From a virus, in the IMG/VR virus record IMGVR_UViG_3300045988_143165, positions 3,410 through 67,409 of that record: 64,000 nucleotides of DNA; one strand, 5' to 3'. Each line of letters starts with the position of its first letter. The stretch's first letter is position 1. Positions 2,970-54,221 of the stretch are shown one piece after another. The translations under genes were made by a program, and so were the position numbers. The notes under the pieces were generated by a model that saw only the letters and a program-made list of their open reading frames with translations, was not told where the DNA came from and ran no database searches.

Positions 2970-4169
2970 TCAATATATTGTACTTCCTTTGTTGGTTCTC
3001 TTTATATCTTCTGAAAATTTTGTATTAGATAAATATATATTATCGAAATGTTTTAACAAATCTTGAATTTTACAATTACCTGCAATTTCATTATCCGTAT
3101 AATTCAAATGAGTAATCATAACAGAAGTTTTTGTTCCGCTGATTTTTTCTCTTGCTCTTTGTATATCAGCTTTCACTCTATTGATAAACTCATCATAATC
3201 AAACATTCCATACCTTATTGTTTGCTGGTAATCGTTATAACAGTTTGTAAGGTCAGTTATATCTTTATTTATATCCGACTTATCACATTCTGTTGGTAAT
3301 GTTCCTGCTCCGTGTCTGGTAAAATAAGACCTTGTAATATAACAAATTTCAACATCGCAATCAAAATCATTAACTCTTTGAATGGGTGTATAAGAAGTAG
3401 TATTACTTGCTGTGATGTATGGCAATGCTTTTAGATTATTCTCATCAAGTTCAAGACCTTGCGCACCCTCAAATATAATGGTATTATACTTATTTCGGAT
3501 TCTATCGAAATCACACATAAAAGTTATATATTGCATTTCTCTTAAATCACTAACGAAATGTTCAATTAACCCTTTAGACTTTATCAGCTCTTGATATTCT
3601 TGTGGAATTTCTGTTATTCCGTATTCAAATAATTTTTTAGGTAAATAAACATTTGCTATATTATGTAGATAATCTACAACATCTTTATCGTTCATATGAG
3701 ATAGTTGGTTATAATCTAATGCAAAAACACCATCATCATACCTTTTTTGTGTTTCCCAAATACCATAACCACAAGAACCGTGTCTTTTATTCTCTCTATG
3801 TATTTCAACAATTTGATTGATAAACATATCATACATAGTGCTTACTCTACATTTAGGAGAAATCATACATATAGGTTTGATGCCATATTTTTTAAGCTCA
3901 TTATATTCTTGAATGAAGATTGCAGGATTAACCATAAAGTTTTGGTCAAAGTATGTATGAGCATTATCAAATGTGCCACTTCCAAAATGATGGAAAATAT
4001 GCCTTGTGCCATCTTTAAGTTCGACAGTATGACCTCGTTGACATCCTCCATTAAATAAAACATTTAAGCACTTATTTTTCGCGGATTGAGAGAAAAAATG
4101 TGTTGCCAATCCTTTTCCTTCATCTCCATAATTACTACCTATTACTACTTTGACCTTAACTTTACTCAT
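2970..4169 (-). CDS. adenylosuccinate synthetase family protein (PurA-like; PurZ candidate)
   Basis: P-loop GDEGKGL and GGCQRGHT, FEGAQG, TASNTTS, TRHGAG motifs align with E. coli PurA along the whole length. Confidence 0.8.
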   Translation of the reverse strand: MSKVKVKVVIGSNYGDEGKGLATHFFSQSAKNKCLNVLFNGGCQRGHTVELKDGTRHIFHHFGSGTFDNAHTYFDQNFMVNPAIFIQEYNELKKYGIKPICMISPKCRVSTMYDMFINQIVEIHRENKRHGSCGYGIWETQKRYDDGVFALDYNQLSHMNDKDVVDYLHNIANVYLPKKLFEYGITEIPQEYQELIKSKGLIEHFVSDLREMQYITFMCDFDRIRNKYNTIIFEGAQGLELDENNLKALPYITASNTTSYTPIQRVNDFDCDVEICYITRSYFTRHGAGTLPTECDKSDINKDITDLTNCYNDYQQTIRYGMFDYDEFINRVKADIQRAREKISGTKTSVMITHLNYTDNEIAGNCKIQDLLKHFDNIYLSNTKFSEDIKRTNKGSTIY

Positions 4170-22909: not shown

Positions 22910-23353
22910 TCAATGATATAATTGATATTTTTTACTTATGTAATGAGCCATATCATCTTTAAGAGGACAAAACCAAATTCCAGTTAGTGTTGTTCCGTTT
23001 TCTTCTGGTGTAAGCTCGGTAAGACAAGCATCATAAATTAAACCATAATGAACATTCTCTATCAGCCCAAGTTCTTGTGCAATCTTGACCGCTTTAAGTA
23101 AATGATTTTTATTCCTTGCTTCACAAATGGTTTTTGTAAATGAACCATTTAGATATTGTTCAAATATTTCTTTATCGATTATTCCTTTAATTTCATATCC
23201 GGCATAATCATCCAAAGGTTTCGCATAATTCCTTAATCCACGAGTCCAATATGCTTCGGCACAATGAGATACTTGGGCTGCAAGTTTGCCGGGAGACATA
23301 TTCAAATCTTTTCGCATTATGAATAATCTTCTCATTAAAATAGCTCCCACCAA
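22910..23353 (-). CDS. PTH2-family peptidyl-tRNA hydrolase-like protein
   Basis: RKDLNMSPGKLAAQVSHCA matches the PTH2 signature (DLxMxxGKxxAQxxHA). Confidence 0.5.
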   Translation of the reverse strand: MVGAILMRRLFIMRKDLNMSPGKLAAQVSHCAEAYWTRGLRNYAKPLDDYAGYEIKGIIDKEIFEQYLNGSFTKTICEARNKNHLLKAVKIAQELGLIENVHYGLIYDACLTELTPEENGTTLTGIWFCPLKDDMAHYISKKYQLYH

Positions 23354-23583
23354 TAATCAAAAATTCTCTTATAATCACAATGTCTCATATCGCCTTTATA
23401 TTTGCGTGCTTTCTTGCTTGATATTTTTTTAAGATACTTTTTATATTTCCTGCCACCACAAGAATATTTTATATATCTTCTTTTTTTCTCGTCATACCAA
23501 GCACCAGCACCATATGAATTCTTGGTTTCATTATAAAGTTTTTTAAGTCTGTGATTTCTTTCCTGACTTCTGCGATAACTCAT
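23335..23583 (-). CDS. small basic protein
   Basis: ORF rich in K/R/Y. Confidence 0.3.
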   Translation of the reverse strand: MSYRRSQERNHRLKKLYNETKNSYGAGAWYDEKKRRYIKYSCGGRKYKKYLKKISSKKARKYKGDMRHCDYKRIFDYWWELF

Positions 23584-24394
23584 ATTGCCCTCCCAAGTAT
23601 ATTAAATCATTGACATACTTTCGACCATCTTCCTTAAAAATAGGAGTTTCATTATCAATAATCCATTTACTTCTCCCTGTTGTTTCATCAATCTTACGAA
23701 TACAACAACTACCTCTCTTGTATTTCGTAGGACAATTATTCCAGTTGACACCTTTTTCGAGCATAAGCATATCCTGAATATCGCTTATAGATTTTTTATC
23801 TAACTGCTTATGAGAAAAATATGCTCTACCAACCATCTGAATAGAATTTCTGGTTGCATCATTCTGTCTCCAAAGCAAATTATTGCAAACCTCATCTTTT
23901 GGAATATTAAATACACGGGCATCAAACATTGCCCCTTTATCTATTGCTCTATTAAGTACCTCAATATATTCTGATTCGGGTGGAATATCTATATCTTGAA
24001 GTTCTAAAACCGAATTTATATAATCATTGGCTCTTTTATTGAAAAATTTATTAAAAGCCATTGTTGCCATACTGGCTGCAACGCTCGCACATTTTTGGAT
24101 ATTATAATCAAACCAAGCAGAAGTATCTATATTTCTGTAATCAACAAGAACAAGAGTAATCTCATCGGATTGTGTATATCCAAGAACGCAACCCTGAATA
24201 TTCTCACAAAGATACTTCATTGTCTCCTGCATAGTTTTAGAAAGCACATCATCAAAAGGTTTTTGAAAACCTCTTGTGAATGTATGAAATGCTTTACCGT
24301 CAATTCGTATAATAACTGGGGTTCGAGTTGTCAAATAGTGTCTCGACACAAATTCATACTTTTTCATTCTTTTATCAAATGCACTGTATTTCAT
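23543..24394 (-). CDS. Thg1-like protein (tRNA-His guanylyltransferase family, 3'-5' nucleotidyltransferase)
   Basis: N-terminal KYEFVSRHYL...VIIRIDGKAFHTFT matches the Thg1 family (FEYVR...RLDGRNFH). Confidence 0.65.
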   Translation of the reverse strand: MKYSAFDKRMKKYEFVSRHYLTTRTPVIIRIDGKAFHTFTRGFQKPFDDVLSKTMQETMKYLCENIQGCVLGYTQSDEITLVLVDYRNIDTSAWFDYNIQKCASVAASMATMAFNKFFNKRANDYINSVLELQDIDIPPESEYIEVLNRAIDKGAMFDARVFNIPKDEVCNNLLWRQNDATRNSIQMVGRAYFSHKQLDKKSISDIQDMLMLEKGVNWNNCPTKYKRGSCCIRKIDETTGRSKWIIDNETPIFKEDGRKYVNDLIYLGGQYELSQKSGKKSQT

Positions 24395-24960: not shown

Positions 24961-25054
24961 TGGCTCATATAGGATTTGAACCTATGTCTCCGGCAGTGTG
25001 CCTGATTTACACTACATACCTCCGCCAGTGTCTTAACCACTTGACCAATGAACC
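24961..25054 (-). tRNA. atypical 94-nt tRNA-like gene (anticodon arm irregular or with an insertion)
   Basis: Good acceptor (GGTTCAT/ATGAGCC), D-arm (GTC-AAGTGGTTAA-GAC) and T-arm (ATAGG-TTCAAAT-CCTAT). Between D-arm and T-arm there are 39 nt with a 5-bp stem (CTGGC/GCCGG) enclosing 29 nt that include a 6-bp hairpin with a 9-nt loop. Confidence 0.4.
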
Positions 25055-26536: not shown

Positions 26537-26774
26537 ATATGTATATGGCAAAGACCTTTATCTATCTAACTTTGCCCCTGTTAAACAGGTTTTAATCAGA
26601 CAAAAAAATACTCTTAATTTATCTTATGAAATACACAAAAACATAGAAAGGAAAGAGAGAGGTGAAAAATTCTGATTAGGTTTTGTAGTTATCGTATTTT
26701 GTTTTGCTCAATAATGTTTCTTAATGCTGGAAATTTCGGTCTCTTTGATTTTAGGGCTGCTGCCTTACCTCTTG

Positions 26775-26830
26775 GCGACTACCAACAATGTAGATAGGTG
26801 GGAATCGAACCCACGATTAGCAGCTTGATA
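26775..26830 (-). ncRNA. tRNA 3'-half-like cargo (T-arm plus 3' acceptor-like strand) inside structured-RNA unit (a)
   Basis: GTGGG-TTCGATT-CCCAC T-arm followed by CTATCTA. No matching 5' half was found downstream. Confidence 0.35.
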
Positions 26831-26969
26831 TTATGTATTTGAAGAAGGATGAAACCTTTCAGCCAGCTTATATTCAGAAATTTGAGGTTCTTATAATATA
26901 TAGATTAAAAGTCTATTCCTAATAGGTAGAAGGATGAATCTCAACAGCCGAATATTTATTTAACTTACA

Positions 26970-27035
26970 TTAGATATTATAGCACACATTTTACTATTTG
27001 TCAAGTGTTTTTCTCAATATTATTTCTAATTATTT
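26970..27035 (-). promoter_or_regulatory. consensus sigma-A-type promoter with conserved upstream element (P1)
   Basis: Minus sense: TTAGAAATAATATTGAGAAAAACAC, TTGACA, 17 nt, TATAAT. Confidence 0.55.
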
Positions 27036-27200
27036 GAAATTTATTCGATGCGGTAATTTTAACATCTAATAATACTATTGCACTACCAACTGTGCTACAT
27101 CCCATCTTCGATGGAATGGTGGGAGTCGAACCCACGACACATAGTTCCTTGATATATAGAAGGATGATGTTGGTCAGCCGCATATTTTGTATTGTGGAAA
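27030..27200 (-). ncRNA. Y-RNA-like structured RNA carrying a permuted tRNA-like module (unit c)
   Basis: Order on the minus strand: helix 1, internal loop, helix 2, AUCCUUCUA loop, ACTAT, variable GTGTC, T-arm GTGGG-TTCGACT-CCCAC, CATTCCA, loop TCGAAGA, TGGGATG, TA, D-arm GCAC-AGTTGGTA-GTGC, A, ATAGT, 7 nt, helix 2', loop, helix 1'. Acceptor-like strands pair 7/7 (one G-U) and anticodon-like strands 5/5, but the acceptor is capped by a loop. Confidence 0.55.
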
Positions 27201-27476
27201 TTTGTTTCTCTAAAATCTTAATCCCAAATCAAGTGCCTATTGGCGTAGAAGGATGAAAAACAATAGCCACATAATATTTAGAAAGAAGTGTGGGAATTTA
27301 ATGCTCTTTTTAGAAGAATTTGCAGTTCTTGATATTATGTAGAAGGATGAGCATTACAGCCACAAATTATGAATAGTGGAAATCGAACTTTCTATCTTAT
27401 CATCATTATGTAGGTGGCTTAACCACCGAAATTATTTTCTTGTAGAAGGAAGAAAGCCCATAGCCACAAAATACTT

Positions 27477-29726
27477 TTATAATAACTGACCCATAAAGTA
27501 ATCAGTATCGAAAGCCGTGATAATCGGAACTTCCGGCTTTTCCTTTACAACAGGTTTTGTAGTACCCGTAACCTCGTCAAGCTCATTTACAATTTCATAA
27601 GGTACTGTTGTATCATTGCTGAAAATGATGTCTGCTTCATTTCTATCTGTGACAATACTACCTCTTGCAATAGCATTCATCATTATGAGGTCATAAATAT
27701 TTGCCTTATTAAGATGTGTTAAGCCATAGCAAGTTGCGGTTACACCGTGTAAATTACTTTCAAGATTATTTCCATAAAACCTCGAACTTGCATTCTGAAG
27801 GTTCATATCACACCAAATGAATTTACGCTCAACGCAATCGAATATAACGGGTATAGCAACAGTGCTGTCAGCAGTTAAGTCAATCTTCATTTCAACTGTT
27901 TGCGGCTCGAATATCTCGCCGCTATTTATATCTTCTCTTTCCATCCATCCAAAACGGCAATTAGGAAGCGTAGAAAAATGCTGTCCTGTAAAACTATAAA
28001 CCTGAAATGCAATGTATCTACCAGTGTTTTTAGCAACTGCATCAATCTCTACATCAATAAACTCTGCTACACCATCACCATTAACATTTCCGCCATTGGT
28101 AATATCACCCGAATGATATGCTCTGTACTTTGCAGAGCGAAGTTGTGTGTATGATACACGGTCAACATACTGCCAATTTTCATCATAGATGGTTGCAGAA
28201 AGGTCAATATCAACCCTGCTTTCATCCCAGCTATTTCTCGTCTTATCGGTATTAGTCCACCAAATAAAACCACGAACAGCCGTAGCATCTTCCTTAATGG
28301 GCAATTTACTACCACGAACAATGGTCTTAACAGCCTTACTTGCACTTCTCTGACTAAACGGAACAAGGTAGTTTTTGAAATCCTCATCAATATAAACCTT
28401 TCCGAGAAAATCTTTTTCCTTGTACTGTTCAATTAAAGCCTCACGGCAAATCCTTGCAACATTTTTACATACATTGCTATTGATTTTAGGAAGTTCATTT
28501 CTGATAACCATAGCTTTTGCAAGGTTTCCTTTAGGAAAGAATACTCTTACAGGCTGATTATCATTCTCCATTCTTCCTATGAAATGCTGTCTTACCTGAA
28601 GGAGTACAGGAGTTGAGATTTCTGTTGCAACTTCCTTAAAACAGTTGACAATATAATTCGGATTATCTGCATCACGAACAAGTTTGTCAAGTTGCCTTGC
28701 GAACTCTCCGGGTCTTACTTTTAACAAGGTGGCAGCTTCACGCATATCTTTTGCGGTAATTGCTGCCTGAACCTTTCCTGCAAACATAAGAGGCTTTTTC
28801 TCGTTTCTTAAAGTATTGAATGCAGCGTTGACATTGCTATACTTTGCTTTTTTATATTCAAACGGATGAAGAATTTCTGCAACTCTAATCCATTCATACT
28901 GATAACGGAATAAATCCTCTGTTATGTTACCACAACCAGTAAGCAAGTCCATAATCATACGGCGTTCAACCCTACGAAGATTTCTGTACTTGGTTTTTGA
29001 AGCAAGGCTAATGTCGCCATCGGAAAGTGCTGTTACAAGTCGTAAAACATCCGTTGCGGTCTTGAAGTATTTGCCTATTGAATCGGCGCTTTTGATTGGC
29101 GCTTTTTCAATAATGAGTTTTCCAACGAATGCAACATTCTCTTTAAGAGGGATTGTATCAGGAAGATATGTAGTATAATCAGGACAAGCAAGAATGATAG
29201 TTTCAATGTCCTCTTTGTCCTGCTCCGAGATTGATGTCTTGCTCTCAACAAGATTTGTGAAAATAGTCATCAAATCATCGTGACTTCCTACTGATAAAAC
29301 AGCCATTTTATTGTCATCAATAAGCGGTAAACGCTCATTTTTTTCGTATTCGGGAATCAATGTGCCAAATGACCAGTAATGAACGATTGCATTGATAAAT
29401 AACTCAATGTCACTTGCTTCTGCAACCTGCTGTGGGAAGTTCGGGTACATTGGATTATATGTAACATCCGCACCAACAAGTTCTTTAAGTGCAGGAATAA
29501 GGAAACCATAGAAAGCAGTAAACTCATCTCTTGTAAAATGAAATGCTTTTTCAATAAGTTCCTTTGAAAATGTAAATCCAAGAGCCTGAACATTTTTCAA
29601 GCCGGAAACAACGAGTGCTTTTTCTGTCTTGCTCTGCTCATAAGTCATATTAGCAGGTTCAAACATCACTGAATGCTTACGGCGTAACAAAATCTTATCA
29701 AGTTCTGTTAATTTGAAATTCTTCAT
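27477..29726 (-). CDS. large hypothetical protein (749 aa). Alpha-helical N-terminal ~480 aa plus a C-terminal beta-rich region with a possible vWA-like DxSxT segment. Candidate RNA-binding partner of the flanking structured RNAs
   Basis: Long intact ORF with RBS aaaggagattattacaATG, flanked on both sides by the structured-RNA units. No secure motif recognised. A Ro60/TROVE-like assignment is only a hypothesis. Confidence 0.45.
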   Translation of the reverse strand: MKNFKLTELDKILLRRKHSVMFEPANMTYEQSKTEKALVVSGLKNVQALGFTFSKELIEKAFHFTRDEFTAFYGFLIPALKELVGADVTYNPMYPNFPQQVAEASDIELFINAIVHYWSFGTLIPEYEKNERLPLIDDNKMAVLSVGSHDDLMTIFTNLVESKTSISEQDKEDIETIILACPDYTTYLPDTIPLKENVAFVGKLIIEKAPIKSADSIGKYFKTATDVLRLVTALSDGDISLASKTKYRNLRRVERRMIMDLLTGCGNITEDLFRYQYEWIRVAEILHPFEYKKAKYSNVNAAFNTLRNEKKPLMFAGKVQAAITAKDMREAATLLKVRPGEFARQLDKLVRDADNPNYIVNCFKEVATEISTPVLLQVRQHFIGRMENDNQPVRVFFPKGNLAKAMVIRNELPKINSNVCKNVARICREALIEQYKEKDFLGKVYIDEDFKNYLVPFSQRSASKAVKTIVRGSKLPIKEDATAVRGFIWWTNTDKTRNSWDESRVDIDLSATIYDENWQYVDRVSYTQLRSAKYRAYHSGDITNGGNVNGDGVAEFIDVEIDAVAKNTGRYIAFQVYSFTGQHFSTLPNCRFGWMEREDINSGEIFEPQTVEMKIDLTADSTVAIPVIFDCVERKFIWCDMNLQNASSRFYGNNLESNLHGVTATCYGLTHLNKANIYDLIMMNAIARGSIVTDRNEADIIFSNDTTVPYEIVNELDEVTGTTKPVVKEKPEVPIITAFDTDYFMGQLL

Positions 29727-29821
29727 TGTAATAATCTCCTTTGTTTTAATTTGTCGGTAATCATTGAAACTATTTAGAACCCAATTTCTTTAATAGAAGG
29801 AAGTTTCAATATAGCCGTTAA

Positions 29822-29966
29822 GGGAAATTTGATGGAAATTTTATACTCTATTCTTGTAGGCGCTCTATCCGATTGAGCTAACTACCCACGGGGTAGTGCC
29901 GGGCTTGAACCGACAACCTCCTGCTTAACAGGCAAAAGATTTAGAAGGATGAGTATTTTCAGCCAT
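29822..29966 (-). ncRNA. Y-RNA-like structured RNA carrying a permuted tRNA-like module (unit g), immediately 3' of tRNA-Lys
   Basis: Same architecture as unit c. T-arm GTCGG-TTCAAGC-CCGGC, ACTACCC, loop CGT, GGGTAGT (7/7 complementary), TA, D-arm GCTC-AATCGGATA-GAGC, anticodon-like stem CCTAC/GCAGG (4/5). Clamp helices ttgatgg/ccatcaa and atactc/gagtat covary with unit c. The D-arm and variable region resemble the adjacent tRNA-Lys. Confidence 0.55.
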
Positions 29967-29968
29967 CA

Positions 29969-30044
29969 ATGGTGTGCCAGAGAGGAATCGAACCTCCGAC
30001 CTACCGATTAAAAGTCGATTGCTCTACCGATTGAGCTACTGGCA
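29969..30044 (-). tRNA. tRNA-Lys (anticodon TTT)
   Basis: Anticodon stem ATCGA/TCGGT, loop CTTTTAA, T-arm GGAGG-TTCGATT-CCTCT, CCA encoded. Confidence 0.8.
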
Positions 30045-30210: not shown

Positions 30211-30597
30211 GTGTTTTGGCGGCTCTACGTCTTTCGTGTTGCAACACTTAAATTCTACCGCTAATTAGTGTCCTTTAGATAATCGTCATTATCGCACCCA
30301 CTAATAAAGGCTATTCCTTTCTTCATAGACTTACGAGAATTAGGTTTTTCAGACTTCTGGCAATTTCCATCTCTGGTTATTATACGAACACCTTTAACCC
30401 TTTGCCTCTATGCCGATTGTGTACTGAACATCGGGAAACATTTTGGAGATTTTATTTTGAGTCGTTGCTCCAACCCTCGACTTGCGAGTATATGCACCTT
30501 GTACTTCGGCATTGAGACTCGTAACTATGAATAAGAAAACCTTTCTCGTCCAATACAAAGGCTGTACCTTTTAATCGCATATTTATCTCTCACTTAC
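30211..30597 (-). other. 387-nt non-coding spacer between tRNA-Cys and tRNA-Trp (possible structured RNA)
   Basis: No ORF of 60 aa or more on either strand. It sits inside a co-oriented tRNA operon. No tRNA, RNase P RNA or tmRNA signature was recognised. Confidence 0.3.
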
Positions 30598-30673
30598 CTG
30601 GCAGGAGAGGAAGGATTTGAACCCTCATCTACATCGGTTTTGGAAACCGGAGTTCTCCATTAAACTACCCACC
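30598..30673 (-). tRNA. tRNA-Trp (anticodon CCA)
   Basis: Anticodon stem CCGGT/ACCGG, loop TTCCAAA, T-arm GAGGG-TTCAAAT-CCTTC, CCA encoded, one U-U pair in the acceptor. Confidence 0.75.
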
Positions 30674-31186: not shown

Positions 31187-32791
31187 TTACTCTGTTCCAG
31201 CTTCAACAGATGTTTCGGGTAAAACCTTTACGCCGTCAGAATTTACATTTTCATCTTTAACACCATTAACAGTTGTGTTAGTGGTTGTTGCAAGTAAACC
31301 CTTTACGGGTTCGGAAATGCTTGAAACCAAGCCACGAATTTCATCATTAAATGACTGTCCGTTGAGTGCCTGATTCTCTGTATTCAACTTCTTCATAAGG
31401 GCAGGAACACTTGCCAGAGTGTCGATAAGAACATTTCCTGTTCCGCTGGAAGTATTGCCACCACCGATATTTACGAACTCTGCGTTCTGACCGATGTTAG
31501 CCATAATCTCGGCTGTCTTTGTAGCAATAGTAATCTTTGCTTCGTTCTCAATCTTCAACTTCTCAATCTCAAAGTTGACCTTTTCATTGGATGCACGGGC
31601 TTCTGCTAATGCTCTTTCGCCTTCTGCCTGTGCCATTAACTTCTGTTTCTCAACTTCCGCCTCGGCAAGACCTCTCTGGCGAATAACCTCTGCTTCTGCA
31701 ATACCTTTCTGTTTAGTAACATCTGCAACAGCAGTACCCTCTTTACGAGTTTTCTCTGCGGTAGCTTCTGCTGTAATCTTGGTAGCACTTGCTTCTTTCT
31801 CTGCAACCTCAACGGTAGCATCTGCACTTACCTTACGGACATTTGCATCGGCTTCGGCTTCAATTTGTCTCTTTTGCTTTTCAGCCTCGGCTCTTGTAGC
31901 AATTACTTCTTTTTCCTTCATTGCCGCAAGATTAGCCTGTTCTTGCTCAACAACCTTGATACAACCTTGCTGTTGAGCAATTTCCTGCTGCCTAATCGTT
32001 CTCTGCAATTCACCTGCGATTGCGGCATCGGCATCTGCCTTATCTGTTTCTGCTTTAAATTCTGCAATCTTCAAGTTGTTATCTCTTTGTTTAGCAGCAA
32101 CAGCAAGTTTGGAGTCAAGTTCATTCTGGGAAGCAACCTTTTCGGATTCTGCTTTTTGTGTACGAACTGCCTGGTCAACTACCGCCTTTTTGTTCTCTGC
32201 TTCACGGCGCTTATCTTCCATATCAAGAGCAGCAATATTGTCATAGTAGCCGTTATTGTCTGTAATGTCCTGAATGTTGAGTGATACAAGTTCCATACCC
32301 ATATTTACCATTTCATCAGAAACAATTTTTTTAACATTATCGGCAAAAGCAACTTTGTCACGAAGAACTTCTTCCGGTGTCATTGATGCCACAATATCAC
32401 GAACCGCACCTGTTAATGTCAATTTTACATCGTTTATAATTCCGTCTTGACCTCGTTCTTTGAATGAGATAATTGCTTTCTTCAAATTATCCATATTATC
32501 GGTGTCAGGTCTAATCTGTGCAGTCCAATCAATTACAATAGGCACAGATGTTTTGGTCTTTACTTCGTCTCTGTCTGCTGTAACAGTCAACATACAAAGG
32601 TCAAAATATTGAGCCTTTCGGAAAATCGGGATTACAAAAGAACCACCAGATACCTTAATTTTAGGTTCTTTGCCACCTGTTACGATGAGTGCTTTGTCAA
32701 TACCTGCAACTTTATAAATTAAGCAACAGAATATGACAACTACAATAATTGCTGAGATTGCAATTCCGACAGGAATGAGAAATGATGTCAT
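31187..32791 (-). CDS. flotillin-like SPFH/Band-7 domain protein
   Basis: N-terminal TM, then an SPFH core (GGSFVIPIFRKAQYFDL...), a long Ala/Glu/Lys-rich coiled coil and a C-terminal tail, typical of YqiK/FloA-type flotillins. Confidence 0.7.
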   Translation of the reverse strand: MTSFLIPVGIAISAIIVVVIFCCLIYKVAGIDKALIVTGGKEPKIKVSGGSFVIPIFRKAQYFDLCMLTVTADRDEVKTKTSVPIVIDWTAQIRPDTDNMDNLKKAIISFKERGQDGIINDVKLTLTGAVRDIVASMTPEEVLRDKVAFADNVKKIVSDEMVNMGMELVSLNIQDITDNNGYYDNIAALDMEDKRREAENKKAVVDQAVRTQKAESEKVASQNELDSKLAVAAKQRDNNLKIAEFKAETDKADADAAIAGELQRTIRQQEIAQQQGCIKVVEQEQANLAAMKEKEVIATRAEAEKQKRQIEAEADANVRKVSADATVEVAEKEASATKITAEATAEKTRKEGTAVADVTKQKGIAEAEVIRQRGLAEAEVEKQKLMAQAEGERALAEARASNEKVNFEIEKLKIENEAKITIATKTAEIMANIGQNAEFVNIGGGNTSSGTGNVLIDTLASVPALMKKLNTENQALNGQSFNDEIRGLVSSISEPVKGLLATTTNTTVNGVKDENVNSDGVKVLPETSVEAGTE

Positions 32792-33234: not shown

Positions 33235-33290
33235 ACTATATCATATATTTAGGTGTTTGTCAAGAGGTTTTGCAAAATTATTTTTTTAAG
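33235..33290 (-). promoter_or_regulatory. consensus promoter with conserved upstream element (P9)
   Basis: Minus sense: TTGACA, 17 nt, TATAGT, preceded by TAAAAAAATAATTTTGCAAAACC. A downstream hairpin GCTGACC/GGTCGGC lies at 33199-33217. Confidence 0.5.
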
Positions 33291-34030
33291 ATTGAAATGC
33301 TACAATTTGATACGGTATATTTCGTTTTTTAGCACTATCAATCATTTGTTTTGTTCCTTTACTCTTTCCATTCCAAAATGCAAACACATATGAATCGCAA
33401 GTAGATACATCTATATAGTCGAGCATTTGAATGTTTCTAATATAACCTGCCCTTTTACCGAATTGTTCCCAATTTGCCGGAAACCTCTTTAATAATATGC
33501 ACTTTTCTCTGGCATATCTTTCTCCGAGTTGGTCTGTACCACGAGCAGCACCGCTTATAATAGTTATCTTATTATTAGGGTGTTCTTTGACAAATTTATT
33601 AAGGTACTTTTCCAATAGTTCGTAGTTATTAAAGTCTCTACTACCAGCAATAATAACCCTTATTTCAGGTCTTTCTTCATTAAATAATTTTTCCACAAAT
33701 AAATCCATTTCATAAATCAACTTGAAACAGTTACCGTGAGATGCGTGATTCTGCCAAGAACAGTAAATCTCATTGAACTTTTCTCGCTTCATTCTTCCTT
33801 GTGCTACTAACTTTGCGTACTTTCTTAAACGCTTTTTAACTTGCCTTTTGTTATCTCCATTAGGAACAATTTCAGTCTTGTTATTAAGCGTTAATTTTAA
33901 GTTAGCTAAATACTCTTTGGTTTTAATAAGACATTCTTTTAGATACTCTTTATCATTAGATAGTAAATAAAAGTCATCCATATATCTACCATAATATTTG
34001 CATCCAAGCTCATCGACAATATAATGGTCA
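33286..34030 (-). pseudogene. reverse-transcriptase remnant (motif C YMDD plus thumb) fused to a SLOG/DUF2493-like domain. N-terminal RT motifs are missing
   Basis: The frame is open from the stop at about 34031: VFVLIFLNGLDHYIVDELGCKYYGRYMDDFYLL..KLTLNNKTEIVP (retron/Abi-type RT motifs B', C and thumb), then RVIIAGSRDF...ISGAARGTD...NWEQFGKRAGYIRN...GKSKGTKQ (SLOG-like). Only about 190 nt separate it from the upstream DUF6273 gene, too short for RT motifs 1-A-B. Confidence 0.5.
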
Positions 34031-34218
34031 AGTCCGTTGAGGAATATCAGGACAAATACTTACGTGTATCAAGTGCATATTCTTGTAATTTGTCGGCAAG
34101 TCTGCGAAACTTAACAGGATAATGTTGTCTATTTGTTGTCAAGTCAAAAACCTCTGTATATAGTATTTCCGCTTTTCGCCTATTAGAAATTTAGTTTCTT
34201 CACTCATTTGAAATCATT

Positions 34219-34827
34219 TCAAGATACTAAGATAGAAGAATTCAAGATACAAAACGGGCGAACACCATGGCAACAGCCACAGCCGCACCAACCGAGAATG
34301 CGGCTGGAATTGACACAGCAAACGCCAAGAGCATAGTAATTATTAAGTGTCGTTACACCTGTTGCAGTCCAGAACCACTTATCAACAGCAGGAAGAAATT
34401 CACGATAACGGCGATAGTTCTCCGTAGTAATGATTGAAACATTGTCTTTGCAACTTGCGCCCTTGTTAGAACCATCATCGCACACGAGTTTTACCCTATG
34501 AGAAATGATGTTATCTTTACCTACAACCCTTGCAAGTTCCTTATAAAATTCTCCATTGCAGAATTCACGAACATAACTCTTTGCATAATCACCGGTTTCG
34601 CCAAAGTCCATTTCCTTAACAATGCTTTTTGTGATTACTGCCGTAGTTTCTTCTGCGTGACCAAGAACAATGTATTCACGGTTGCCGAGTTTTACAGTCT
34701 CTCCGGGTTTAACATCACCGAGCTTTTTGCCTGTCTTTTCAAAAAGAAGAATAGCAAGTGAGCCATCATCATTCTGATTGACTGTAACATTTACATTGGG
34801 AATGTTGTTTGTAATATTAACTTTCAT
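34219..34827 (-). CDS. DUF6273-like protein (paralog B)
   Basis: KPGETVKLGNREYIVLGH, FCNGEFYKELA, KWFWTATG...GCGCCHGVRPFCILNSSI motifs. Its 3' end shares nucleotide identity with paralog A. Confidence 0.55.
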   Translation of the reverse strand: MKVNITNNIPNVNVTVNQNDDGSLAILLFEKTGKKLGDVKPGETVKLGNREYIVLGHAEETTAVITKSIVKEMDFGETGDYAKSYVREFCNGEFYKELARVVGKDNIISHRVKLVCDDGSNKGASCKDNVSIITTENYRRYREFLPAVDKWFWTATGVTTLNNYYALGVCCVNSSRILGWCGCGCCHGVRPFCILNSSILVS

Positions 34828-34992
34828 TTTATCAACCTCTTTTTTGCGTATTTCTCAATACGATTTTTAATGTACTCATATAATAGCATACATATCTCCA
34901 TTTGTCAATAACATTTTTGAAAAAAATCAAAATTATTTCTAATTTTCGTGAAAATTAAGATATGTTTTGAAATTATCATATATTCCAAATTT

Positions 34993-35760
34993 CTAATTTG
35001 AATGATATTCAAAGCACGGCATTAACTGTAACTTGAACATATTTTTTTCGTGCATTTCGTTAATTTTTGCCTTTACTTTTTCGTCATCACATATTCCAGT
35101 TCTTATATACTTATCAAGAACTGCATAGGTGAAGCCAAAACTATCTTCATCTGTCTTTCCACAAAGTCCATCTGTCGGAGTTTTGTGTGCAAGCTCATTA
35201 GGTAAGCCACAATCCTCTGCTATGGCAATTACTTCTGTTTTTGTAAGCATTGCAAGAGGACTAAAATCTCCTGCTGCATCACCGTATCGTGTAGAATAAC
35301 CGATATAATCTTCCGAAAGATTGCAGGTATTCATTACTCTGCCATTCATTGATTGAGATACAGCATATAATGTAGCCATTCTCAAACGAGCAGGAAGATT
35401 GATTTTAGTCTGTTCTGAAATATCAATAGGATAATAACCGTCAAAATTTGGGTCATAGTAATCATCAATATTACAGATTATTCCATTGTATGCTTGTTCA
35501 ATATTAACCTCTGTATATTTGATACCAAGATGTGAAACCAACTTAATAGCAGAATCAATATCTTTCTGCACGCCATTTGGCATAAGCACACCAAATACCC
35601 TGTCTTTCCCAAGTGCTTCAACGCACAAAGCAGCAACCGTGCTTGAGTCTATGCCACCTGAAATTCCGATAATAGCATTACAGTCTTTTCCATTTTTTTT
35701 AAATATATCTCTTATCCATTCAACAACATCATTTTTGACTTTTATTACATCAAATGTCAT
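34993..35760 (-). CDS. nadE: NH3-dependent NAD+ synthetase
   Basis: PP-loop GISGGIDSS. About 255 aa, typical NadE size. Distal part of the NAD+ salvage gene set. Confidence 0.8.
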   Translation of the reverse strand: MTFDVIKVKNDVVEWIRDIFKKNGKDCNAIIGISGGIDSSTVAALCVEALGKDRVFGVLMPNGVQKDIDSAIKLVSHLGIKYTEVNIEQAYNGIICNIDDYYDPNFDGYYPIDISEQTKINLPARLRMATLYAVSQSMNGRVMNTCNLSEDYIGYSTRYGDAAGDFSPLAMLTKTEVIAIAEDCGLPNELAHKTPTDGLCGKTDEDSFGFTYAVLDKYIRTGICDDEKVKAKINEMHEKNMFKLQLMPCFEYHSN

Positions 35761-37220
35761 TAGAACTTACCTCCGTGCAATGTATTTCTTACTTCCGAAA
35801 GAGAGTATTCTTTTATCATCTTACCATCACTGAATATAGGCTGGAGCATATTATTCTCGTTATACGCCTCTGCCCAGGTATGACCATCTGTAAATGTGAG
35901 GTCTGAATTTACAATACAACAACCTTTTTGTGATTTCTTAAATCCACCGTCTTTTGGATTCTTAAAAATCGGCACAGATTTTCCGTTAATCTCACAATAT
36001 GTTGCTTTAATGCAAGAACTAAAGGTATCACGGGTAAAAGGCTTTAGAATACCATCTTCCTCAATGCACTGGAATGAGAAAGAACCAACTCCAAGCGCAA
36101 CGTTTGAGCAAGCAAAACCATTCTGCATAAGGATTTCATAGATTTGCTCACATCTCTGTACCGTAATACTATCACCATAAATAGCCTTAACGTGTGGGTC
36201 AAGTACTTTATATCCCTTGCTGTTTACTGTTCCGCCAAAAATATCCCACAGTTTGAATACTGTCCTTGTAACAACCTCAACACAATCACCGGAATCTCCA
36301 CGCATAAGCATACAACCATTGTGTGACATAATTTCAGGTTTTAATTCAGGAAGAACATTATCAATTATGTTCCAGTAATCATATGAATCAAGCACAGCGG
36401 AAAACGAATTATTGGGATAAATTTCCGCTAAAAGTCTGCGAAGAAGCGTAATTTCATCACCATCGACTGCATAATTACTACACATAACTGAATGCTCTGT
36501 GCTGGGTGAACCAAATGCCACAGGTTCTTTTGTGCAATCGCAATTATACATTGCCTCAAGATAGGGAACTGTCGGAACGGTTGCAGTATTCAAAAATGAC
36601 ATACACCAACCTGCACCAGCTTTAATTGCTGATTCTGTGCATTCCTCGCCTCTGAAATCAAATGCTCCGAGTGCTTTTGACTTTGGAACATCATCATCAC
36701 AAGTCAGGTCGTAATATTTATTTACAATCTGACGATATGTATATCCGACTGTTGCAGCCAACATAGGATGCCAGCTTTCAGCAGAAATAAGGCTTTCAAG
36801 AGCTTGTGGAAGCCAAGCGAAATCAGAATGTGTATTTGTAATTCCAAACATCGGAACGTGCATCGGTACAAGTGTTCCTTCAGGAAGTGCCACAATCTTA
36901 ATCGGAAGATAGCCGAGTTTGTGAAGTTCTTCAATCTTCTTAATACCGTAAACATTCTCTCCAAGAGAAGCATCCATAATTCTCTTATAATTTGCGATAA
37001 CCTCGTCAAAAGGTTTATTGAAAAATTCTTCGTTGAAATAATCAATAAGGTATGTTTTTATAAAACCCTGCAACCCAAACATAACAACCTTATCCCATCT
37101 CTTAACTCTCGTCATTCTCGGAGTAAAATAAGATACTGATTTTGTGATTCCTTTGGGCAACATTTCTGCGTGTACTGCCTTATAAAAATCAATAAGCAAC
37201 ATAGGATTTATCTTTCTCAT
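35760..37220 (-). CDS. nadV: nicotinamide phosphoribosyltransferase (NAMPT/NadV family)
   Basis: Aligns with human NAMPT along its length (IDFYKAVH/TDSYKVTH, LPIKIVALPEG, VLDSYDYWN/VSDSYDIYN, LMRGDSGD/IIRPDSGN, NSKGYKVL). RBS taaGGAGaattgaaATG at MRKINP. Confidence 0.85.
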   Translation of the reverse strand: MRKINPMLLIDFYKAVHAEMLPKGITKSVSYFTPRMTRVKRWDKVVMFGLQGFIKTYLIDYFNEEFFNKPFDEVIANYKRIMDASLGENVYGIKKIEELHKLGYLPIKIVALPEGTLVPMHVPMFGITNTHSDFAWLPQALESLISAESWHPMLAATVGYTYRQIVNKYYDLTCDDDVPKSKALGAFDFRGEECTESAIKAGAGWCMSFLNTATVPTVPYLEAMYNCDCTKEPVAFGSPSTEHSVMCSNYAVDGDEITLLRRLLAEIYPNNSFSAVLDSYDYWNIIDNVLPELKPEIMSHNGCMLMRGDSGDCVEVVTRTVFKLWDIFGGTVNSKGYKVLDPHVKAIYGDSITVQRCEQIYEILMQNGFACSNVALGVGSFSFQCIEEDGILKPFTRDTFSSCIKATYCEINGKSVPIFKNPKDGGFKKSQKGCCIVNSDLTFTDGHTWAEAYNENNMLQPIFSDGKMIKEYSLSEVRNTLHGGKF

Positions 37221-37231
37221 TTCAATTCTCC

Positions 37232-38368
37232 TTATACTGCATAATGAATGTTCTTGGTAGGACATCTTGAAAAACTCAAATATTCAACCTCTGTTGACCT
37301 TGCACAATCAACAACCTCTTTACAATCATCATCCTGTGAATATTTGATTTGAATATTTTCAGGACTAATACAATAGAGAAGTTTTTCAACATTATATTCT
37401 GCATCCGATACATTGAAATCAACTCTTACAAAATCATTACCTTTCTTATCTTCAAGCCATAAATAATCTTCATAATCTCCGAACATATCCAAACCGTAGT
37501 TTTTGTGCTGTGCTGTGAGTCCATTCTTATAATGAAGAACAATATTATATCTTAAATAATTATTAAGATTTACAATGTTCAAATCTTTAATAGCTTCCTT
37601 AAATGAAATTCCTGTGTTAATTTCAAATGCGATAGCTCTTAAACAGTCATAATTCAAATTTACTTTTCTTGAAAAAGCGATAATAGAATCAATCTCACCG
37701 TAATACTGTTCATCAAGTTTATCAATAAGATATTCCCGAACTTCCGTTGGTGTCGGATAATCAAATCTGAAATGATAATGAAATCTTCCCGGTCTGTTTA
37801 TTAGATAATTGTTTAACTTACCGAGGTCATTACAAGTAATAACAAACAATTTTTTGCCACCAGAAACACCATCAAATAAGCTCAAAAGATTTGCCTGTGG
37901 AGAAGCCTCTCCATCTCCTGCCTTTACTTCTCCAAATGTCTTATCGAACTCATCAAACAAAACCATAACCTCTTGGTCAATGCTTTCAATATATGATGCA
38001 ATGCCAGGAATATACCTATCTACAACAATAAGTGGAATATCTTTCTTCTGTGCTTCAATAGATAATAGCCTTGCAAATAAAGATTTGCCAATACCCTTAT
38101 CTCCACTTAAAATAACGCCAAGATTTCTGTTAAATTTGTCAAATGAGTTCAAAACCTTATTTACTTTTTCGATATGTACTCCGTAAACTTTATCTTCTTT
38201 TACTTCAATATCGACATACTTTTCAAGATAAAATCCCTTAAATTGACTAAATCTCACAACATAACTTTGTGTTGGAAATTTTTCATATGTTTTTAATGTA
38301 TCATCAAAAACCTCATATGAATTTCCAGAACTAATAACCTTCACTTTATTTTTCCCCCTAATCAACAT
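37232..38368 (-). CDS. AAA+ ATPase
   Basis: Walker A GDKGIGKS, Walker B VLFDEFD, sensor ITCN, RPGRF arginine-finger region. Embedded between nadV and prs. Confidence 0.6.
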   Translation of the reverse strand: MLIRGKNKVKVISSGNSYEVFDDTLKTYEKFPTQSYVVRFSQFKGFYLEKYVDIEVKEDKVYGVHIEKVNKVLNSFDKFNRNLGVILSGDKGIGKSLFARLLSIEAQKKDIPLIVVDRYIPGIASYIESIDQEVMVLFDEFDKTFGEVKAGDGEASPQANLLSLFDGVSGGKKLFVITCNDLGKLNNYLINRPGRFHYHFRFDYPTPTEVREYLIDKLDEQYYGEIDSIIAFSRKVNLNYDCLRAIAFEINTGISFKEAIKDLNIVNLNNYLRYNIVLHYKNGLTAQHKNYGLDMFGDYEDYLWLEDKKGNDFVRVDFNVSDAEYNVEKLLYCISPENIQIKYSQDDDCKEVVDCARSTEVEYLSFSRCPTKNIHYAV

Positions 38369-39261
38369 AAAATTAACTGGTCAATGCCCGAAAGCAATTC
38401 GGACAATTCTCTTGCAATTTCTGCTTGATATTCAAATACCTGTATCTTATCTGATAAGCCAAGAGAATTTGCATACTCTTTAACTTTATCAGTAAAAATA
38501 CTATTAGTAGTAAATACCTTTTTAATCAAACCACTTTTGAAAATTTCTCCATCAAAGATAGTTTTCTCGCAATGTGATATGTAAAGATATACATTCTTTG
38601 CACCGAGTTCTTTTAATTTCTTTGCTGAAAAATAGAATGTACCACCTCGGCTACTGATGTCATCAACAATGATAATATTGCTGTCATTGATTAAATCTTT
38701 TGCACCTGAAACATCAAGTCCTTCGATTTTTCCTGTTTCCCAATTACGCTTTTTAATTCCAAAAGCATAAGGCATATCGAGCATACCGGAATATCTTTTC
38801 ATTGCTCCTTCGTCTGGATAAAAAGCAATAAGAGGTTCATCATTGATTTCGTTTTTAATTTCCTTTATTACCTTTTCGATATAAGGTTTAGGGCTTTCAA
38901 CTTCGATATTGTTAATTAGAGCCTCACTGACAGATGAATGTGGGTCAAGAACAACAACCTTATCAAAATTAAGATTATTGATAAACTCTGCAAAATACTT
39001 TAATGTAAATACATCATTTTCGCTCTTTACCCTATCCTGTCTGGCATTTGGAATGTAAGGCATAACAAGATTTACTTTGTTAGCTCCAATTCTCCTTACG
39101 TGATTTGCAAGGAACATTATGGCAATCATTTCCTCATTGCTTTCAAAATGCCAACAAATAGTAACTGTATGATTGAAAATAAATTCAACATTAGGATTGA
39201 GTCTTAATGTTTCATCGGGAAACTTATTTATTGTTATTTTTTTTCCGTTAATTAAAATCAT
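38362..39261 (-). CDS. prs: ribose-phosphate pyrophosphokinase family (PRPP synthetase, or an ADP-ribose pyrophosphokinase Adps-like enzyme)
   Basis: MPYIPNARQDR (compare PYFGYARQDR) and IIVDDISSRGGT (PRPP-binding loop). Confidence 0.75.
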   Translation of the reverse strand: MILINGKKITINKFPDETLRLNPNVEFIFNHTVTICWHFESNEEMIAIMFLANHVRRIGANKVNLVMPYIPNARQDRVKSENDVFTLKYFAEFINNLNFDKVVVLDPHSSVSEALINNIEVESPKPYIEKVIKEIKNEINDEPLIAFYPDEGAMKRYSGMLDMPYAFGIKKRNWETGKIEGLDVSGAKDLINDSNIIIVDDISSRGGTFYFSAKKLKELGAKNVYLYISHCEKTIFDGEIFKSGLIKKVFTTNSIFTDKVKEYANSLGLSDKIQVFEYQAEIARELSELLSGIDQLILC

Positions 39262-54045: not shown

Positions 54046-54221
54046 AGTAATTTTTCCTCTCTAATTTAATTATTAGAGCGTATAAGAAAATCCCATCGTC
54101 ACCGATAGGATTTGATAATCAATTTTCCTATCGGTCAAGCATTAGCACCTTACCTGTTGGCAGGTTGCTGTGCGGTCATAGGGCTTGCTCCCTCACACAC
54201 TCTTAATAGGGTATTTTTATT

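Follow-up and report, generated by a model that had tools for sequence, protein, structure and literature searches.

A conserved RNA gene with a tRNA-like centre

The stretch of DNA analysed here (the window; 64,000 nt, positions 3,410 to 67,409 of IMG/VR virus record IMGVR_UViG_3300045988_143165) carries on its minus strand a series of related RNA units arranged around an open reading frame (ORF) of 749 amino acids (aa). One of these units, unit c, lies fully inside a segment, 27030-27200, that a sequence-only reading had flagged as a permuted tRNA-like module of the kind found in the bacterial Y RNA YrlA. Judged from sequence comparison, the flagged segment is a real, conserved RNA gene of 136 nt with a tRNA-like centre. 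Its parts are given below in the 5' to 3' direction of the RNA; P1 and P2 are the helices of a clamp formed by the two ends.

27183-27048, minus: unit c (also U6), 136 nt, complete Y-like RNA with clamp and tRNA-like insert; ends set by P1 pairing
27183-27178, minus: P1 5' strand AUGCGG, final GG conserved; partner CCGCAU at 27053-27048
27177-27175, minus: CUG, the conserved CUR of GGCUR, internal loop between P1 and P2, identified by conservation
27171-27166, minus: P2 5' strand AACAUC; partner GAUGUU at 27066-27061
27164-27158, minus: UCCUUCU junction motif, invariant in 47 units
27145-27141, minus: ACUAU, 5' strand of the anticodon-like stem; partner AUAGU at 27078-27074
between ACTAT and the T arm, minus: variable loop GTGTC, 5 nt
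27135-27119, minus: T arm GUGGG-UUCGACU-CCCAC; two GG/CC pairs invariant, the other three covarying
27118-27098, minus: loop-closed acceptor CAUUCCA-UCGAAGA-UGGGAUG, 7 bp, compensatory changes at all 7 pairs
27118-27112, minus: 3' acceptor strand CATTCCA
27111-27105, minus: 7-nt loop TCGAAGA closing the acceptor
27104-27098, minus: 5' acceptor strand TGGGATG, followed by TA
27095-27080, minus: D arm GCAC-AGTTGGTA-GTGC (as RNA, GCAC-AGUUGGUA-GUGC, with A14, G15, G18 and G19), followed by a single A
27078-27074, minus: AUAGU, 3' strand of the anticodon-like stem, 5 bp
27066-27061, minus: P2 3' strand GAUGUU
27060-27048, minus: 3' clamp strand, AAAAUUA (conserved A-U-U-N) and then CCGCAU (P1 3' strand)

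All of the elements listed in the sequence-only reading (T arm, both acceptor strands, 7-nt loop, D arm, ATAGT and ACTAT) were found on the minus strand, including the proposed pairing of ATAGT (27078-27074) with ACTAT (27145-27141), and the anatomy that it described is right. Unit c has neither an anticodon loop nor a free acceptor end: the acceptor is capped by the 7-nt loop, and the anticodon-like helix runs into P2 and P1. The segment does not hold two ordinary adjacent tRNA genes, as no tRNA was called at 27030-27200 by ARAGORN or, even at E <= 10, by the Rfam tRNA model. Folding of unit c, a check suggested with the same reading, gave z = -3.55, with the structure that combines cloverleaf and clamp lying 2.5 kcal/mol above the minimum free energy.

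We also searched both strands of the window with a strict pattern for the module. It asked for a TTCRANN loop on a T stem of 5 bp, an acceptor with at least 6 of 7 bp closed by a loop of 3-13 nt, a D stem of 4 bp together with A14 and GG, and tRNA register of the anticodon-like stem. Exactly two sites were found (27135 and 29914), both within clamp units, compared with none in 100 Markov-simulated windows.

Eight clamp units surround a 749-aa ORF

The pattern GGCTR-N10-TCCTTCT occurs in exactly eight copies in the window, all on the minus strand within 26726-29969, and each copy has an AUUNCC 3' partner and complementary flanks. The eight units (U1 to U8, with unit c as U6) share the order P1, GGCUR, P2, UCCUUCU, variable insert and AUUNCC. 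Two of them lie upstream and six downstream of the ORF; unit c is 294 nt downstream of it on the same strand. The insert is a permuted tRNA-like module in three units (U1, unit c and U8) and a short hairpin in the rest. Scores labelled R1 in the list come from a covariance model of the clamp; the large insert makes the long tRNA-like units score poorly with this model, and those units were therefore counted with pattern tools.

29969-29829, minus: U1, 141 nt, clamp unit with tRNA-like insert and V hairpin; YrlA 34.6 bits; strict-pattern match at 29914; begins immediately 3' of the CCA of a tRNA-Lys
29817-29755, minus: U2, short clamp unit, R1 50.7 bits; lies in the ORF's 5' leader and ends about 13 nt 5' of its AAGGAG Shine-Dalgarno sequence
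29726-27477, minus: 749-aa ORF; predicted alpha-solenoid (TROVE-like, 1 to ~455), TerD beta-sandwich (~470-645) and small alpha/beta C-terminal domain
27467-27376, minus: U3, clamp unit with hairpin insert, identified by the motif and pairing flanks
27364-27289, minus: U4, short clamp unit, R1 40.2 bits
27271-27193, minus: U5, short clamp unit, R1 40.1 bits
27004-26976, minus: consensus sigma-70 promoter, TTGACA-17-TGnTATAAT, between unit c and U7; 12/12 match with extended -10, a consensus match only
26955-26870, minus: U7, short clamp unit, R1 34.5 bits
26867-26726, minus: U8, clamp unit with tRNA-like insert (class-II-type D arm, 5-bp closed acceptor); YrlA 21.9 bits

Because the sigma-70 promoter lies between unit c and U7, unit c is probably made as part of a longer transcript that starts upstream, from which it would have to be processed.

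The tRNA-like module varies as a tRNA fold

Orthologues of unit c were found in related phage loci (L001, L002, L003, L006, L012, L019-L030 and others), and 30 homologous modules from related phages were compared. Compensatory changes occur at all 7 acceptor pairs and at 3 of the 5 T-stem pairs, and the D stem is kept. The anticodon-like stem stands in exact tRNA register (1 nt past the D stem on one side, 4-5 nt ahead of the T stem on the other) and occurs in 19 sequence versions (e.g., ACUAU/AUAGU, ACUGG/CCAGU, ACCGG/CCGGU and GCUGC/GCAGC); on average 4.42 of its 5 pairs form, compared with 3.08 when partners are shuffled (maximum 3.62 in 1000 trials). The Levitt pair 15:48 covaries as well, being G15:C48 in 21 modules and A15:U48 in 7, with no A:C combination, and A14 is invariant. 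The same Levitt signature was used to argue for an L shape of the tRNA-like part of YrlA (Chen et al. 2014; PMC4201824).

The units come in two length classes, of 60-90 and 110-149 nt. The orthologue of U1 in one of the related phages (L001, 3830-3896, with a protein 90% identical to that encoded here) is 75 nt long instead of 141 nt and has no tRNA-like insert, whereas its P1 and P2 are nearly identical to those of U1. This contrast points to a recent gain or loss of the module; taken together with the bimodal lengths, it indicates that the tRNA mimic is a swappable module.

The clamp is conserved across units with different inserts

The clamp was analysed in an alignment of 47 distinct phage units (A2), in which 3' partners were picked partly by their pairing, so that its counts lean toward structure: 89% of clamp cells are paired compared with 36-44% in slid controls, and double compensatory cells number 218 compared with 45-61. 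The P1 pair adjoining GG is CG in 27 units, UA in 18 and AU in 2, and P1 covaries in independent bacterial loci as well. In P2, 6 positions have 12-29 double compensatory changes each, and 17-81 in 125 independent units. GGCT is invariant in the 47 units, as are columns T53, T54 and C56 of the 3' clamp strand, and the R-U pair is found as A-U (28 units) or G-U (19).

An independent test used a covariance model built from phage units only, which was run on 80 bacterial loci (604 kb). It gave 128 matches at E <= 0.01, all on the ORF strand and adjoining the ORF. In the alignment of these matches (A5), which was fitted to the model and therefore also leans toward structure, 92.4% of cells are paired (36-46% in controls) with 573 double changes (92-181 in controls). 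Essentially invariant in the clamp are GG/CC, CU, the C-G pair that closes P2, UCCUUCU and UU-N-CC. No Rfam family covers the clamp, even at E <= 10; it is a distinct conserved motif, a point on which the YrlA assignment of the sequence-only reading is not supported as it stands.

The junction motif UCCUUCU pairs with the insert in 32% of cases, compared with 29% for shuffled inserts. It is thus probably single-stranded, to judge from these pairing frequencies, and a P3 hairpin between UCCUUCU and a purine run of the insert was dropped as unsupported. We also considered whether UCCUUCU could be an anti-Shine-Dalgarno mimic. Another candidate, the repeated series TTTCCAC...GGCTG...CATCCTTCT read as a promoter, was rejected because CCAC/GTGG and the segments that follow pair and covary.

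The 749-aa protein is predicted to have a Ro60-like fold

The protein encoded by the ORF belongs to a large family (2,870 representatives at 50% identity, the best 150 being mostly full-length matches of about 700-750 aa), and NCBI names its close relatives "TerD family protein". It matches phrog_33734, listed with function unknown, and, through residues 313-696, positions 387-761 of the 842-position NCBIfam profile NF041916 (E = 2e-122, 410 bits, cut-off 600). By sequence it is related to NF041916, an equivalog profile for the MXAN_6230/SCO0854 family of RING domain proteins, but is not an equivalog.

AlphaFold2, given 92 sequences, modelled the protein with a mean predicted local distance difference test (pLDDT) score of 93.3 and a predicted template modelling (pTM) score of 0.91; the N-terminal domain modelled alone reached a pLDDT of 93.8. 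The best PDB fold matches of the N-terminal domain model are Ro60 proteins, and its other matches are generic solenoids with short alignments or alignments of high root-mean-square deviation. For comparison, true Ro60 homologues differ from one another by 5.8-6.5 A (PMC12135203). The TerD domain, with the conserved acidic residues of the calcium site and GD residues (D506, D508, S539-G540-D541, E555 and D558), stands where Ro60 has its vWA domain, and there is no C-terminal vWA domain with MIDAS, an adhesion site that depends on a metal ion. We therefore describe the protein as Ro60-like by the fold of a predicted model, a resemblance that falls short of proven homology.

The RNA and the protein are found together in phages and bacteria

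For the phage set, 80 loci with homologues of the ORF (37-96% identity) were taken from IMG/VR phage contigs of up to 460 kb; the bacterial set of 80 loci includes Paenibacillus, Brevibacillus, Priestia, Niallia, Chloroflexi, cyanobacteria, Acidobacteria, Bacteroidota and Saccharibacteria. A strict regular expression found the motif in 68 of the 80 phage loci, always on the ORF strand, and a slightly looser one placed a unit directly upstream or downstream of the ORF in 71. In bacteria the motif flanks the ORF in 77 of 80 loci. Copies on the opposite strand number 0 in the phage loci and 9 in the bacterial loci, the latter against 138 on the ORF strand. A unit lies no more than 450 nt upstream of the ORF in 64 phage and 62 bacterial loci, and 50 phage loci have units downstream. 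The upstream units, together with the position of U2 beside the Shine-Dalgarno sequence, suggest autoregulation.

In four loci from Lachnospiraceae/Clostridiaceae metagenome-assembled genomes (MAGs; L087 1752-5600, L090, L092 and L102), rtcB lies directly upstream of the ORF on the same strand, and tRNA-like units lie 3' of it. Apart from rtcB in these loci, bacterial neighbour genes are not conserved. The order there is rtcB, the TROVE-like/TerD gene and then 2-3 clamp units, two of which have tRNA-like inserts and one only a T-arm-like hairpin (CCGGUUCGAAUCCGG); the 3' clamp motif is CUCACC, not AUUUCC.

The homologues in cultured phages are annotated as "hypothetical protein" or "cytoplasmic protein" in every case. 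In Xanthomonas phage XacN1, a clamp unit (E = 6e-6) lies 77 nt upstream of ORF396. In Rhodococcus phage Weasels2, whose protein shares 33% identity, the gene is followed by four units of diverged sequence, and one of them contains a complete tRNA-like insert; protein and clamp sequence seem to have diverged together. These units occupy an unannotated intergenic region after gp266 (L161 4400-4800; NC_041887.1 ~85460-85860), with GGAUUAAG...UUACUUC...CGCUCACC. At the nucleotide level, a comparison with deposited phages gave one weak metagenomic match. Neither Rfam 15 nor the searchable literature (SCO0854/MXAN_6230, TerD with Y RNA, TROVE with TerD), the coverage of which is incomplete, yielded a description of this pair of protein and RNA, so that a prior mention is possible.

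Relation to known RNAs and proteins

The units share several features with YrlA (RF02553). Both have a terminal stem formed by pairing of the 5' and 3' ends, and in the centre of both a T arm is combined with an acceptor closed by a loop (AS) and a D arm, in some cases also with a V hairpin; the Levitt pair of both covaries as G15:C48 or A15:U48 (PMC4201824). Both are encoded beside a presumed protein partner on the same strand, with several RNAs per locus and linkage to rtcB in some loci; the rtcB-linked Lachnospiraceae/Clostridiaceae loci resemble the Salmonella rsr-yrlBA-rtcBA operon. A place within about 4 kb of a same-strand TROVE Ro60 orthologue is a criterion for YrlA; here the same-strand ORF is 294 nt away, lacks a Pfam TROVE domain and has an N-terminal model that best matches Ro60. 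Binding by Rsr, the modifications Psi55 and D, and recognition as a substrate by RNase P and the CCA-adding enzyme are further criteria.

The Rfam searches speak on both sides of this comparison. On the one hand, YrlA is the best-scoring Rfam family for the three units with tRNA-like inserts (35.9, 34.6 and 21.9 bits); in unit c it covers 27143-27076 with E = 2e-5. On the other hand, the gathering score is 69, the unit c match is confined to model positions 23-85, the tRNA-like core, and only these positions align in two of the three. At gathering thresholds, Rfam finds only tRNAs and a riboswitch in the window, and no YrlA. The units differ further from YrlA in lacking GNCGAAN0-1G, the motif near the 5' end that PMC4201824 defines and that presumably contacts Rsr (a regular expression found it in 0 of 8 units), in having their own invariant GGCUR...UCCUUCU...AUUNCC, in forming arrays of up to eight units, most of them without a tRNA-like part, and in having a partner that is not TROVE by sequence. 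Thus, the YrlA-type assignment made in the sequence-only reading stands for architecture, best-scoring family and Levitt covariation, but not for family membership. Its proposed Ro60/Rsr partner fared similarly: there is a same-strand neighbour whose closest structural match is Ro60, but it has no Pfam TROVE domain and carries TerD instead of vWA. We regard the locus as akin to the YrlA/Rsr system but not as a member of it, in view of the Rfam score and the missing GNCGAA on the RNA side and of the TROVE sequence and vWA on the protein side.

Other known systems resemble the locus in part. Ro60, Rsr and the Ro60 of phage phiLo are HEAT-repeat ring proteins that combine TROVE and vWA (PDB 1yvp, 2nvo and 9l5y). 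TerD-family tellurite-resistance proteins share their conserved acidic residues with the 749-aa protein; however, the classical ones are single-domain proteins of about 190 aa with no known RNA partners. Permuted, or two-piece, tmRNA (RF04321) likewise has a T arm and 3' acceptor strand followed by the 5' acceptor strand, but unit c has a D arm and an anticodon-like stem in addition; this model scored 18.8 bits on unit c (E = 0.58, gathering 47) and covered only the T arm and acceptor region.

A candidate Ro60-like ribonucleoprotein and its alternatives

Ro60 with its Y RNAs is a classic ribonucleoprotein (RNP) that is still poorly understood. To our knowledge, Y RNAs of bacteria and phages have so far been found only beside recognisable TROVE genes. 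The reading that we favour, with a probability of roughly 0.6, is that the locus encodes a divergent, Ro60-like RNP equipped with Y-like RNAs of its own, tRNA mimics among them, the clamp being the handle for the protein and the insert the effector module. Unit c would then be the gene for a modular Y-RNA-like non-coding RNA, with paired ends forming a conserved clamp. The parts of this clamp would be P1, an internal loop made of GGCUR and AUUNCC, P2, in which a purine is bulged, and a junction with UCCUUCU in single-stranded form. We infer that such RNAs are expressed and processed as discrete molecules and that the clamp is the docking site for the adjacent 749-aa Ro60-like protein, predicted to combine a TROVE-like helical domain with a TerD calcium-binding-type beta-sandwich at the place of the vWA domain of Ro60. 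The module of unit c would be an L-shaped tRNA mimic that lacks an anticodon loop and a free acceptor end, and sister units would present other modules. As proposed for YrlA, the mimic may bring a tRNA-recognising partner to the protein, such as a modification enzyme, a nuclease or repair enzymes (e.g., RtcB); alternatively, it may compete with tRNAs for such a partner. The leader unit U2 would let the protein repress its own translation. The particle could serve to control the quality of tRNA or RNA, in repair, or to counter defences during infection. What the analysis itself shows are the RNA structures, the recurrence of the RNA beside the protein across phyla and the fold resemblance of the predicted model.

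Several observations weigh against this reading. Because GNCGAA is missing from all eight units, any binding mode would differ from that of known Ro/Y pairs. The protein has no Pfam family and no TROVE match at E <= 0.1; phmmer of the protein against PDB sequences returned nothing, Ro60 included, the family profile retrieved only TerD from the PDB sequences (E = 0.052) and again no Ro60, and Foldseek against the PDB gave nothing significant. As Foldseek and the profile-sequence searches are blind to the Ro60 likeness, we limit the claim to a Ro60-like fold in a predicted model. The bias of A2 and A5 toward structure is a further caveat. Finally, most bacterial loci have just one or two short units upstream of the ORF, which would also fit a purely cis-regulatory leader, and in Priestia megaterium a terminator-like hairpin precedes the ORF.

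That last arrangement leads to the first of the alternatives, each of which we considered less likely than a Ro60-like RNP. The clamp might regulate the adjacent gene in cis, as a leader that binds protein, as an attenuator or as a riboswitch, instead of acting in trans as a partner RNA; the tRNA-like inserts and downstream copies would then be secondary. Units close upstream of the ORF in most phage and bacterial loci are what such a leader would show, and in the chromosome of P. megaterium BS2-10 (L126 2780-2990) a single clamp unit follows a promoter-like TTTACA-17-TACAAT and is itself followed, just before the ORF start, by the terminator-like hairpin (CAGG...CCTGGCTTTTT), an order that may be that of an attenuator. 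However, units lie downstream of the ORF in 50 phage loci, arrays reach eight units with no gene behind them, and the downstream modules are elaborate, with tertiary covariation of the tRNA type that a leader would not need; autoregulation by the leader copy, moreover, is compatible with a Ro60-like RNP and is included in it. We therefore find regulation in cis alone unlikely. That the units are instead genuine, if divergent, members of the YrlA/Ro60 (Rsr) system is quite improbable: YrlA is their best Rfam family and Ro60 the best structural match of the neighbouring protein, but all scores are far under 69, GNCGAAN0-1G is missing, the protein has TerD in place of vWA and no Pfam TROVE domain, and the clamp has invariant motifs of its own.

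The units could also be a new self-cleaving or processing element that cuts the array of tRNAs and RNAs, the link to the protein being indirect. They stand in tandem with short A/U-rich linkers inside a tRNA array, would need excision from longer transcripts and have invariant nucleotides at the junction; but no Rfam ribozyme family was found at E <= 10, and the motif goes with the ORF in different phyla, even in bacterial loci that have a single copy and no array, whereas the known ribozymes that cleave themselves show no tie to any one protein family. We hold this explanation to be very improbable, and still less credence goes to unit c being the decayed remnant of two adjacent tRNA genes, or a tRNA gene in permuted form from which a working tRNA matures by way of a circular intermediate. 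Permuted tRNA genes do occur in some algae, the T and D arms of unit c are canonical and it lies between two tRNA clusters; but neither ARAGORN nor the Rfam model calls a tRNA, an anticodon loop is missing, the acceptor has neither CCA nor discriminator, and the clamp that holds the module also occurs in units without a tRNA-like part. In addition, each of the 7 pairs of the closed acceptor covaries across phages, and the acceptor has thus been selected in its closed form.

The finding suggests that phages and bacteria have a second kind of Ro/Y-RNA particle, which is widespread. In its full form, to which we give about even odds, the proposal is that the 749-aa protein and the clamp RNAs make up a second, unrecognised branch of Ro60/Y-RNA-type RNPs, distributed over about 2,900 protein clusters from large phages and numerous bacterial phyla, with a TROVE-like ring fused to TerD and its own GGCUR/UCCUUCU/AUUNCC RNA family, which in phages forms arrays of up to eight interchangeable modules and whose tRNA mimics tether the protein to tRNA-handling enzymes, so as to repair, police or protect the tRNA pool during infection. 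If this is true, Ro60 has a much larger sister family, invisible at the sequence level (2,870 clusters at 50% identity), the inspected examples of which are annotated only as "TerD family" or "hypothetical" and which has a compact, easily searched RNA partner that matches nothing in Rfam. It would also account for a large unannotated phage gene family and for many "intergenic" repeats in phage genomes, extend the idea of tRNA-mimicking Y RNAs to gut and environmental phages, and tie phage tRNA arrays to an RNA-surveillance or repair particle, linked to rtcB in some loci. Hundreds of natural variants of the protein-RNA pair would be at hand for structural work, and cultured test systems exist in Xanthomonas phage XacN1, Rhodococcus phage Weasels2 and Priestia megaterium.

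Genomic surroundings and other features of the window

The locus is embedded in a phage tRNA array; ARAGORN finds 13 tRNAs in the window. Genes near the array encode Thg1, PTH2, DUF488, phosphoesterases, a Band-7 protein and NAD-salvage functions, and a Bacillota host is suggested by the extended -10 promoter, by ribosome-binding sites of the form AAGGAG and by Ruminococcus and Clostridia as the nearest relatives among MAGs. Other features of the window are as follows.

22913-24394 and 33289-39261, minus: genes for PTH2, a Thg1-like guanylyltransferase, a SLOG (YAcAr) protein, NAD synthase, an NAMPT-like phosphoribosyltransferase, an AAA ATPase and a PRPP synthetase-like protein
24961-25054, minus: tRNA-Pro(AGG) called by ARAGORN, 94 nt, Rfam tRNA 51.5 bits
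25640-26210 and 30215-30600, minus: long stretches of the tRNA array without convincing ORFs
31190-32791, minus: 534-aa SPFH/Band-7 protein, next to the tRNA array on its upstream side
54125-54212, minus: SAM-I (S-adenosylmethionine) riboswitch, 58.7 bits (gathering 44.4)

The cluster of tRNA and NAD accessory genes is typical of phage islands for counter-defence and tRNA maintenance. As to the SPFH/Band-7 protein, TROVE proteins and SPFH scaffolds reportedly occur with cognate RNAs, and SPFH proteins are said to feature in RNA-repair systems tied to tRNA-like RNA. The two ORF-poor stretches could hold further RNAs; no Rfam match was found in them at E <= 1 beyond weak noise. The tRNA-Pro(AGG) is unusually long for a tRNA-Pro and may contain an intron or a long insert, or its anticodon may be mis-assigned. 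The SAM-I riboswitch lies in what is apparently a large phage genome.

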